DNA of 64,000 nt from a phage. Shown here one piece after another: positions 21,217 through 23,326 of this stretch; positions within the stretch are counted from its first letter, which is position 1, and each line of letters starts with the position of its first letter. The notes beneath the pieces were generated by a model that was not told the DNA's origin, ran no database searches, and was given only the letters and a program-made list of their open reading frames with translations. The DNA lies in sequence record PZ000613.1; one strand, 5' to 3'. Both the position numbers and the translations under genes were made by a program.

Positions 21217-21295
21217 TCAATGGGTGCCTCTGACAAAGGGGCACAATTTAAAGGTTAATTAGATGAAAGGGTTTACCCTTCAGGTGGATTAGAAA

Positions 21296-23326
21296 ATTTG
21301 TGGCATCGTATTAGCTGGCGGTAATCTGTCAAGCACTGATTTAGACGTATTTAACCAACTCTTTTATGCTGGGGTGTTCCGAGGGCAGCATTCCTCTGGT
21401 ATCTTCGGTCAGCGTAAAAGCACTAAGGAAGTCTTCACTTATAAAGAAGCTCTTCCTTCTTTCGCATTCATCCTACAAGATGAGTACAAGAAGCATACCA
21501 CTGGTGAAACAGCTTACACTGTAGCACCTTCATGGATTGTTGGTCACAGCCGTCATGCAACGAAAGGTGCAGTTAACGCCAAGAACGCCCATCCTTTCCA
21601 ACATGGTAACATCACTCTGGTTCATAACGGAACCTTGATGGACCAAGATCTGTTACCTGACAGCAAAAACTTCGAGGTAGACAGTGAGAACATCTGCCAC
21701 TCTATTAACACAATTGGTGCAGCAGAGACTATTCAAAAGCTGGATGGTGCTTTCACTTTAATCTGGCATGATGCTTCTGATAACCGCCTTCATATCATCC
21801 GTAACGAAGAGCGTCCATTCCACCTCGCACGTTGTAACAGAGATTGGTTTGGTGCTTCTGAAGAAGATATGTTGATGTGGATTCTGAAGCGTTCTAAGTC
21901 TCATAAGAACCGTATTGACGAGCATTTTGAATGTAAAGTTGGTACAGAGTATATCTTTGATATGTCAAACAACGGCATGACTTTGGTTGAAGAGGTCGCC
22001 CACGAGCTTCCGGTTTTTACGGTAGCCAATCGTTGGGGCAGTTATTACTCGAACAACTACAGCCAAAGCAACTATCAAAGTTCCTCAAAAAGCAGTACAA
22101 GCAATCCTTACGACACGAAGCCGGGAGTGACAGCGGCAGACGTTCGTCGAAGAAACGCAGTGGTAAGTCAAAACAAAATCGCAAGCGATCGAAACATTGA
22201 TATTCGCCGCGATATGACTGTGGAAATCACTCCGCATGAGTTTGTTCCTTATGCAACTGCTGGTGCTGTTCCTTCTCGTGGTAAGATGATTGGTTATATC
22301 TACGATGAGAAATCTCAAGAGTATATCGAAGGGGATGTTCATAACGTAGACATTAAGGCTTATCAGGATGCCCTGAAAGACCCTAAAATTGTTTACCGTG
22401 GGACAGTATCCTGTATCTCCGAAGTTAATGCTATGGTTCGCTTAGTGATCACAGCAGGTCGTTTTGTTGACCCATCTCTGGAGAAAAAGGAGCCTGAGTC
22501 TACTACTGCTGACTTTGATGATGATATCCCTTTTGACATGAATGATAGTTTCGTCAACAAGAATGGCGTTACTATCACTCGTAAATTCTGGGAAGCACAT
22601 TCTCATGGTGATTGTGGTGGTTGTGACAAACACATTGATTGGAAGGATGCACCTAAAGCAGTCTTCGCATATCAGTGCTACTGGCATCCTGAATGTCTGG
22701 AAGGTTTGACTAAACCTAAAGAGGAAGAAGAGGAGGAGACTCCTATTGGTGTTTGTGAAATCTGTGGTGAAGTTAAAACAGAGAATGAGTTCGATGATGA
22801 GCTTAGTCGTCTTCGTGGTGAAGATATCTGTAAAGTCTGCGCTGTAGAAGTAAAGAAGAAAGTATCTAATGCTACGATCAAAGATGGTTATGTCTGGATT
22901 AAAGCGACAGATACAACAAACGCCCGTCGTCCTGAGTTTGCTTTACGTGTAACTGAAGACATGATCGGTCGTATGACGGTATTACCTTCCTCAGCGAAAC
23001 AGACAGGCATCACTCTGGAGGATGTTGTTGATGCTTATGTTGAGAAACGTAGCAACAGTATTTTTGCAATCTCAACTAAGCCAAAAAAGGAGGAACCTGC
23101 TGAGAAAGCAGGTGTGTTTCCTGAATCACGAACAGCTCTCCGCAAAACTGTTGTCAGCTTCGACGGAAACCGAAGCACTGACTTCACCAAAGCCATGTGG
23201 TCAACCCTCGGATACTGCTCAGAGTGTTTTAAGCAGATTCCGTGGCGCGATGCTGAAAGTTGTACGCTTGGTTCTATGAATCAAGTTTATTGTAATTCTC
23301 CTAAATGTTCATTGAATAGAGGTTAA
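21296..23326 (+). CDS. Class-II (Ntn) glutamine amidotransferase fused to Cys-rich zinc-ribbon C-terminal region; non-canonical start
   Basis: In-frame CGIVLAGG...RGQHSSGIF...GHSRHATKG...NAHPF...LVHNGTL...FEVDSE matches GlmS/PurF-type N-terminus; catalytic Cys codon (21299) preceded only by AAA-ATT after in-frame TAG; SD AGGTGGA 7 nt before ATT; C-terminal CxxC pairs. Confidence 0.7.
   Translation: MCGIVLAGGNLSSTDLDVFNQLFYAGVFRGQHSSGIFGQRKSTKEVFTYKEALPSFAFILQDEYKKHTTGETAYTVAPSWIVGHSRHATKGAVNAKNAHPFQHGNITLVHNGTLMDQDLLPDSKNFEVDSENICHSINTIGAAETIQKLDGAFTLIWHDASDNRLHIIRNEERPFHLARCNRDWFGASEEDMLMWILKRSKSHKNRIDEHFECKVGTEYIFDMSNNGMTLVEEVAHELPVFTVANRWGSYYSNNYSQSNYQSSSKSSTSNPYDTKPGVTAADVRRRNAVVSQNKIASDRNIDIRRDMTVEITPHEFVPYATAGAVPSRGKMIGYIYDEKSQEYIEGDVHNVDIKAYQDALKDPKIVYRGTVSCISEVNAMVRLVITAGRFVDPSLEKKEPESTTADFDDDIPFDMNDSFVNKNGVTITRKFWEAHSHGDCGGCDKHIDWKDAPKAVFAYQCYWHPECLEGLTKPKEEEEEETPIGVCEICGEVKTENEFDDELSRLRGEDICKVCAVEVKKKVSNATIKDGYVWIKATDTTNARRPEFALRVTEDMIGRMTVLPSSAKQTGITLEDVVDAYVEKRSNSIFAISTKPKKEEPAEKAGVFPESRTALRKTVVSFDGNRSTDFTKAMWSTLGYCSECFKQIPWRDAESCTLGSMNQVYCNSPKCSLNRG

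Follow-up and report, generated by a model that had tools for sequence, protein, structure and literature searches.

In this work, we analyzed the translation start of a glutamine amidotransferase gene in a 64,000-nucleotide (nt) stretch of phage DNA (sequence record PZ000613.1; hereafter the window, meaning the whole stretch), which shares ~97% identity with Escherichia phage phiEco32 and related phages (Kuravirus, Gordonclarkvirinae) and thus represents a phiEco32-like Kuravirus. The comparative evidence makes it very probable that translation of this gene starts at the AUU codon at 21296, directly before the codon of the catalytic cysteine, and that this start forms part of a module, linked to homing endonucleases, in which a short hairpin and a Shine-Dalgarno (SD) sequence precede AUU or AUC (AUY). 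The AUU start taken by itself we hold with greater confidence than this explanation as a whole. An AUU start is as such of a known kind and is already annotated for phiEco32: in both EU330206 (phiEco32, coding sequence phi32_83) and the SU10 record the 2031-nt coding sequence has ATT as its first codon. A literature search, beyond whose reach two primary phiEco32 papers lay, found no discussion of this ATT start. What is new is the recurrence of AUU and AUC across the gene family, together with the tight coupling of these codons to an SD-adjacent hairpin and their homing-endonuclease association.

The catalytic cysteine and the leader before it

Read by codons, the start region runs ATG (21263) AAA GGG TTT ACC CTT CAG GTG GAT TAG (21290-21292) AAA ATT (21296-21298) TGT (21299-21301) GGC ATC GTA TTA GCT GGC GGT, which translates as MKGFTLQVD*KI-CGIVLAGG. 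Its elements are the following:

21296..23326, + strand: glutamine amidotransferase coding sequence, full, 676 codons; homologue of phiEco32 gp83 and SU10 gp85
21299..21301, + strand: TGT, catalytic N-terminal Cys of the class-II (N-terminal nucleophile, Ntn) amidotransferase domain
21296..21298, + strand: putative initiation codon ATT, as AUU read by the initiator tRNA
21289..21295, + strand: A-rich 7-nt spacer TTAGAAA, which includes the in-frame TAG at 21290-21292
21282..21288, + strand: SD-like AGGTGGA, 7 nt 5' of the ATT
21267..21280, + strand: hairpin 2, AAGGG-TTTA-CCCTT; its 3' end is one base away from the SD and precedes the start codon by 15 nt
21263..21292, + strand: 9-codon open reading frame (ORF) MKGFTLQVD, ending at the in-frame TAG
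21248..21303, + strand: 56-nt block invariant in Kuravirus, Suseptimavirus and Nieuwekanaalvirus

The gene product matches the Pfam families PF13522 GATase_6 (55 bits, cut-off 27) and PF13537 GATase_7 (27.4 bits, cut-off 25), and its profile matches in the PDB are GlmS, PurF and AsnB. The Cys is invariant in a protein alignment of 16 diverse homologues, which begin M-C-G, and in a profile of these 16 sequences position 2 (Cys) aligns with residue 1 of mature Escherichia coli PurF (1ecb). Judged by these alignments, the mature amidotransferase must begin with the Cys. The automatic ORF list opens the gene at GTG 21374, giving a protein of 650 amino acids (aa) from which the Cys is lost, as the preliminary description of this DNA had pointed out. 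Relative to phage ECBP2, the 26 codons from the ATT to this GTG show 4/1/13 differences by codon position and comprise 12 synonymous and 3 non-synonymous codons, that is, coding-type evolution. The nucleophilic Cys and the coding-type evolution of these 26 codons together indicate, therefore, that translation begins at or before the Cys. Upstream of it stands only TAG-AAA-ATT, and a canonical start is absent between the stop and the Cys. The same description had reported CGIVLAGG in frame from 21299, the lack of a canonical start in TAG-AAA-ATT-TGT, the AGGTGGA 7 nt from the ATT, the 9-codon upstream ORF (uORF) from ATG 21263 to the same TAG, and two short hairpins upstream; all of these were found again on reading the sequence, with the hairpins at 21224-21244 and 21267-21280 and with clean pairing to the 3' end of 16S rRNA (CACCU) limited to AGGUG (-7.2 kcal/mol).

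The invariant block takes in everything from the ATG of the uORF through hairpin 2, SD and spacer to the ATT and the Cys codon, and ends after two bases of the Gly codon. At 56 nt (21248-21303) it is the longest invariant run in a 5.75-kb alignment of the three genera, in which 59.5% of the columns are invariant and the runner-up has 24 nt. A 54-nt segment of the region (21257-21310) was found in 99 phage records, in 69 of them at 100% identity and in 30 at 95-99%. The ATT is never back to ATG across the three genera, whereas neighbouring codons are substituted at about half of their third positions. By these alignments, the Kuravirus leader is under strong purifying selection, because it holds the longest invariant run and because the ATT has stayed unreverted amid substituted third positions. 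Exact-pattern scans of viral contigs gave matches in Kuraviruses and in the distant locus L015 only, the latter with an identical GGATTAGAAAATTTGTGG, and no further copies of the leader were found within the window.

Other signals were sought in the same leader. An Rfam scan of 20900-21700 gave no match above gathering (astro_FSE reached 16.4 bits vs 70, E=0.19), and a promoter and terminator scan found nothing on the + strand. On the minus strand, 21332-21305 carries a sigma-70-like TTGACA-16-TACGAT (10/12 match), which could yield an antisense RNA over the leader; as an antisense promoter it was rejected, its -35 not being conserved in Suseptimavirus and one such match being expected by chance. 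Also rejected was a minimum free energy (MFE) hairpin that would sequester the SD, GGUUUACC/GGUGGAUU: both substitutions of Aeromonas phage BUCT695 disrupt its stem, and the 64-nt leader folds no better than shuffles (z=+0.8). A scan of the window for SD followed by ATT or ATC gave three weak candidates without hairpins (51016+, 59907+ and 23574-) and is uninformative, because its SD filter also missed 21296. In Grimontviridae-type phages (L023-L025, L028-L031, L097) and in L008 we observed a conserved TTTAAATGTAA 18-22 nt before the amidotransferase start, after a GC-rich hairpin; it includes AATGTA, the core of the promoters of the phiEco32 gp36 sigma factor (PMC12276001), and would imply a very short 5' leader. 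The gp36-type motif is degenerate in Kuravirus (AAAGGTTA) and in the window (TTTAAAGGTTAA, 21247-21258), and a test for AATGTA enrichment in the window found none.

A hairpin-SD-AUY module and its link to an HNH endonuclease

To survey start codons at homologous loci, the 16-sequence protein alignment was used to retrieve 80 metagenomic and 80 viral loci, and the Cys was found by motif. Across the 141 unique loci, the Cys was directly preceded by ATG in 111 (109 plus two mis-parsed by the pattern), ATT in 21, ATC in 4, TTG in 4 and GTG in 1. The amidotransferase family thus shows a five-to-one excess of ATT and ATC over GTG and TTG, the reverse of the order usual in bacteria, in which AUU counts as 'exceptional' (PMC3592434). 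The ATT column aligns with the ATG of homologues in phages of Proteus, Cronobacter, Salmonella, Aeromonas and Pantoea as well as at numerous metagenomic loci, GTG stands directly before the Cys in APT65, and the ATG and GTG starts of the homologues have an SD 5-8 nt upstream. ATT-TGT is present in all three Gordonclarkvirinae genera, in BUCT695, which belongs to another family, and in the unrelated loci L015, L016 and L035. In 21 of 23 ATT/ATC loci (the sets scanned before the ATT loci L008, L015, L016 and L035 were added), the interval from the nearest upstream stop to the Cys holds no in-frame ATG, GTG or TTG, and at the ATT/ATC loci every ORF is long and intact, with 366-676 aa where complete. 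These loci are dispersed on a neighbour-joining tree, with ~19 state changes by parsimony. The start codon may differ between very close sequences: L049 (ATT) and L185 (ATC) share 99% identity in their first 200 aa, and the phages VPp1 (ATT) and WD615 (TTG) have an identical coding sequence over the ~50-60 nt read downstream of the start. Taken together, these results provide strong comparative evidence that AUU and AUC serve as initiation codons in the amidotransferase family.

As a separate observation, the metagenomic contigs L105 and L109/L113 share 98% amidotransferase identity and the same flanks, and only a block of 14-33 nt is swapped between them: a hairpin, GGAGGA and ATT in the L105 type, AGAGAGG and TTG without a hairpin in the others. 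An upstream HNH gene was not detected at L105, L109 or L113 by our local hidden Markov model (HMM).

The hairpin next to the SD sets the ATT/ATC loci apart. With a test that asked for a stem of at least 4 base pairs (bp), a loop of 3-8 nt, a free energy of at most -2 kcal/mol and a 3' end 12-17 nt before the start, a hairpin was found at 20/25 ATT/ATC loci vs 4/108 ATG loci (Fisher p=1.7e-15); at control offsets of 22-27 and 30-35 nt the ATT/ATC loci gave 1/25 and 0/25, respectively. When only intergenic gaps of at least 20 nt were considered and the Gordonclarkvirinae were collapsed to one, the hairpin was present in 16/18 vs 1/16 (p=2e-6). The ATT/ATC hairpins comprise at least 14 different stem sequences, among them a shared loop with compensated stems (GCCC-TGTTA-GGGC vs GAACC-TGTTA-GGTTC). 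SD pairing is stronger at the ATT/ATC loci (-8.4 vs -6.8 kcal/mol at the ATG loci, p=1e-4) and the SD more fixed (GGAGGA(T) at -13 to -7), and the intergenic spacer has a median of 45 nt, as opposed to 1 nt at the ATG loci, which mostly overlap or abut the upstream gene. On these comparisons, hairpin 2 and the AGGTGGA of the window are the local instance of this hairpin-SD-AUY module. Regarding hairpin 2 in the relatives, a BUCT695 substitution falls in its loop and L035 retains AGGGT-AGA-ACCCT.

In the mechanism that we propose, the SD AGGUG(GA) at 21282-21288 would recruit the 30S subunit and the initiator fMet-tRNA would pair with the AUU 7 nt downstream, after which deformylase and methionine aminopeptidase would remove the Met and expose the Cys (21299) as the N-terminal nucleophile. 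The module consists of a short hairpin, 0-2 nt, a strong SD, ~7 nt, and AUU or AUC, and is carried by ~18% of the phage genes of the amidotransferase family. Hairpin and strong SD may offset the weak codon, either because they hold the 30S subunit or because they stabilise the transcript, and the net effect would be a low or initiation factor 3 (IF3)-sensitive expression. Candidate roles of the hairpin are to steady the 30S subunit on the weak codon, to insulate the SD or to protect the transcript. In a library of synthetic 5' untranslated regions, stem-loops 5' of the SD increased transcript abundance (PMC12743556); like these and like ompA-type 5' stabilisers, the phage leader places a short stable hairpin immediately before an accessible SD, but here the hairpin is tied to AUU/AUC starts at a fixed distance of 12-17 nt.

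Two cellular genes offer the closest parallels for the start codon. E. coli infC, which encodes IF3, shares the AUU start at the thrS-infC junction and the preceding in-frame stop exactly 3 nt upstream (UAA GGU AUU vs UAG AAA AUU in the phage), and there, too, an SD and an A/U-rich context aid the weak codon (PMC3592434). However, the AUU of infC serves IF3 autoregulation and the phage enzyme has no link to IF3; moreover, the phage upstream ORF is a 9-codon relic and not a real gene, and the phage module has an SD-adjacent hairpin. In E. coli pcnB, encoding poly(A) polymerase, the AUU keeps the enzyme level low, according to Binns and Masters (2002) as cited in PMC3592434. By analogy, a low enzyme level set by the AUU would be the most economical functional reading for the phage gene, although pcnB is a single cellular gene and the phage ATT/ATC recurs in ~18% of a gene family with a structured leader.

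At several ATT/ATC loci the gene directly upstream encodes an HNH_3 endonuclease. By local HMM, an HNH gene stands in this position at 7/25 ATT/ATC loci vs 0/108 ATG loci (p=4e-6). The upstream endonucleases form one family (24-63% identity), and in some pairs they are closer to each other than the adjacent amidotransferases are (e.g., 63% vs 40%). The order HNH, hairpin, SD, ATT is found in the cultured Vibrio phages VPp1 and 275E43-1. In BUCT695, an unannotated 246-nt gap (L008:2798-2996) holds an internally deleted, frame-shifted HNH pseudogene directly 5' of the hairpin-SD-ATT leader, whose N-terminal 29 aa share 52% identity with the HNH protein of L035 and then run into a stop, and whose frame-shifted C-terminal helix-turn-helix part has 58% identity over 33 aa. 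A second decayed HNH remnant was found at L187. Two stricter statements of this association were rejected: that HNH presence obliges ATT, by UFV-P2 (HNH with ATG) and WD615 (HNH with TTG), and that the HNH family always comes with the hairpin-SD-ATT block, by T7-like phages with HNH beside GTG or ATG starts and no hairpin.

The Kuravirus leader is 96% identical to that of BUCT695 over 52 nt of the 54-nt element (88.6% over a 79-nt blastn match). It is homologous to the leader that follows the intact HNH gene of L035 and to the one that follows the decayed copy of BUCT695, which is suggestive of a past insertion at most. The Kuravirus allele would most simply be read as an endonuclease-free relic of an endonuclease-linked allele, acquired by homing or in a short conversion tract, with the endonuclease gene either never taken up or later lost. 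Free-standing seg and mob endonucleases of phage T4 practise such 'intronless homing', with co-conversion of flanking markers. Like them, the HNH_3 gene is intergenic, lies directly 5' of a conserved gene, is intact, decayed or absent among relatives, is sometimes closer between phages than the flanking gene, and is accompanied by short junction blocks common to unrelated phages; unlike in those systems, the window has no detectable HNH gene or remnant. We know of no description of a non-canonical start codon linked to free-standing homing cassettes.

A further step, which we offer tentatively and regard as doubtful, is that the AUU/AUC start is the outcome of a conflict with the homing endonuclease, the change of the start-codon G (G to T at the Kuravirus locus) being one of the few escape or immunity mutations that are tolerated. 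The HNH enzyme would recognise the highly constrained ATG-TGT-GG start region of endonuclease-free alleles, hairpin and strong SD would compensate for the altered codon, and co-conversion would be the means by which the whole block spreads, whether or not the endonuclease gene goes with it. If true, this would explain the patchy phylogeny and the ~80-nt block common to Kuravirus and Aeromonas phage BUCT695, and a selfish element would be driving the evolution of a non-canonical start codon. The immunity mutation is weakened by UFV-P2 and WD615. The HNH association, exclusive within the sample when set against the ATG loci, suggests more generally that selfish elements can remodel the translation start of a neighbour, for which, to our knowledge, there is no precedent described.

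The in-frame stop, the upstream reading frame and other accounts of the start

The preliminary description had left the choice between AUU initiation on the one hand and reinitiation or stop read-through on the other. Our comparison upholds the first, speaks against read-through and leaves reinitiation an auxiliary part at most. If the uORF mainly drove expression, ribosomes that had initiated at AUG 21263 would open the hairpin, stop at UAG 21290 and reinitiate 3 nt further on at the AUU. The in-frame stop-3 nt-AUU arrangement has the same geometry as in infC, where coupling about doubles the use of the AUU (PMC3592434), the Kuravirus group, BUCT695 and L035 all retain the ATG, and an AAGG lies 8 nt before it in Kuravirus. 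However, outside the Kuravirus group the uORF is found only in BUCT695 and, joined in frame to the amidotransferase gene, in L035; most other ATT/ATC loci have no comparable uORF, a few showing short dissimilar mini-ORFs that were seen without systematic examination. In BUCT695 no SD precedes the ATG of the uORF and both substitutions are non-synonymous, and, if its AATGTA is a gp36-type promoter centred at -11.5 (PMC12276001), the transcript would begin at or after that ATG. A uORF-driven start is thus unlikely; because the uORF is narrowly distributed, its peptide unconserved and the BUCT695 uORF devoid of an SD, reinitiation would be at most auxiliary, and we keep it, for its thrS-infC-like geometry, as a minor and non-exclusive contribution to initiation at the AUU. 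The TAG itself is unremarkable, since an in-frame stop two codons before the start also occurs in 28/120 ATG-type loci. TAG and uORF are probably incidental by-products of the leader sequence, with no conserved peptide.

Read-through of UAG 21290, or another upstream start, would yield a short propeptide. Bacillus subtilis PurF carries an 11-residue propeptide whose removal exposes Cys1. The phage enzyme is of the same superfamily and likewise needs a free N-terminal Cys, so autocatalytic removal as in PurF might be imagined, and L035 seems to fit: with TAT at the position of the TAG, its ATG-(11 codons)-TGT reads in frame as MQGRTLKDCYTI-CG, a stop-free 12-residue extension colinear with MKGFTLQVD*KI-CG. 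Yet this match of frames simply follows from a homologous leader, which in L035 and Kuravirus is colinear over 33 nt (19/33 identical ungapped, P about 1e-4). L016 has a possible GTG start three codons upstream, but this GTG sits inside its SD (AGGTGA). In the window the TAG breaks any extension; it is unchanged throughout the 99 genomes, in-frame TAGs recur in L015 and L016, and the 21 of 23 loci mentioned above have an upstream stop and no start. Besides, the codon before the Cys is ATT or ATC and never another Ile codon or another residue, as would be expected of a start codon and not of a propeptide residue. The propeptide that the preliminary description had considered therefore fails here, and we hold this account to be very improbable.

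Hardly any credence is left for an artefact or a dead gene, be it a sequencing error at the TAG or the ATT, a pseudogene, or a truncated protein made from GTG 21374. Automatic gene callers do pick downstream starts, but 99 independent genomes are concordant, which refutes the sequencing error at the TAG raised in the preliminary description; the substitutions in 21296-21373 are of coding type, the ORF has its full 676 codons, and a truncated product would miss the invariant nucleophile. The protein was, moreover, detected in SU10, in which proteomics found the amidotransferase by mass spectrometry with nine peptides (PMC4281155). An N-terminal peptide of the amidotransferase is not reported in the text and supplements of that study (PMC4281155).

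Several points weigh against our own account of an AUU start within an endonuclease-linked module. Both the N-terminus and the placement of the ribosome derive from sequence comparison, and the neighbour-joining tree is a rough one made from short divergent sequences. The statistics for the association of hairpin, SD and HNH gene ignore kinship among loci. The Kuravirus SD is only moderate (AGGUG) and that of BUCT695 weaker (AGGCGGA), the roles of the hairpin are deduced, and the invariant Kuravirus block shows no covariation. Finally, a tblastn search of six HNH proteins against the whole window (E<=1) gave no match, so that leader homology is the sole ground for calling the Kuravirus allele a relic.

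Deposited annotation and the surrounding genes

The start at ATT given in the phiEco32 and SU10 records is not the general rule. A downstream ATG or GTG is used in the WFI101126, ECBP2, EK010, IME267, EP335, BUCT695, VPp1 and 275E43-1 records, with loss of the Cys; in ECBP2, EK010, IME267 and EP335 an internal Met was chosen as the start. The relatives' records concerned by this comparison are those of L003, L004-L007, L008, L199 and L200. Gene callers that ignore ATT thus drop the catalytic Cys and leave 'amidotransferase' proteins without an active site in the databases. Conversely, the obligatory N-terminal Cys is a landmark that exposes non-canonical starts, here ~25 independent natural AUU/AUC initiation regions of one architecture, which make up a comparative and experimental set on the mRNA features that permit weak start codons in bacteria.

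The remaining features of the locus are:

20113..21216, + strand: upstream gene of the Amidoligase_2 family, homologue of phiEco32 gp84
21224..21244, + strand: hairpin 1 (MFE fold), 8-bp stem GUGCCUCU/AGGGGCAC and loop GACAA, in a terminator-like position after the amidoligase gene
within 21296..23326, + strand: amidotransferase domains, N-terminal GATase_6/7 and a C-terminal Cys-rich extension of ~400 aa

The amidoligase gene stops with TAA at 21214-21216, and 79 nt separate this stop from the ATT. Hairpin 1 is kept across genera, with one compensatory pair (T-A to C-G in Suseptimavirus). A T-run is absent from it and the terminator scan made no call there; without a T-run it is not a classical intrinsic terminator.

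The C-terminal ~400 aa of the amidotransferase (window 22050-23326), past the ~250-aa GATase domain, contain an acidic EEEEEE run and several paired-Cys motifs, such as CGGCDKHIDW...C..WHPEC, CEICGE...CKVC and CSECFKQIPW...C..PKC, which resemble zinc ribbons and have no Pfam match. The gene belongs to a cluster (18683-24966) formed by a COOH-NH2 ligase type 2, an unknown gene, the Amidoligase_2 gene, the amidotransferase, two small ORFs and an ATP-grasp enzyme, and in other phages the gene 5' of the amidotransferase varies (Peptidase_C26/class-I GATase, ATP-grasp R2K or amidoligase). Within the same cluster, the 24-nt invariant run at 23769-23792 falls where the ATP-grasp gene begins (ATG 23770) and marks a second tightly constrained initiation region.

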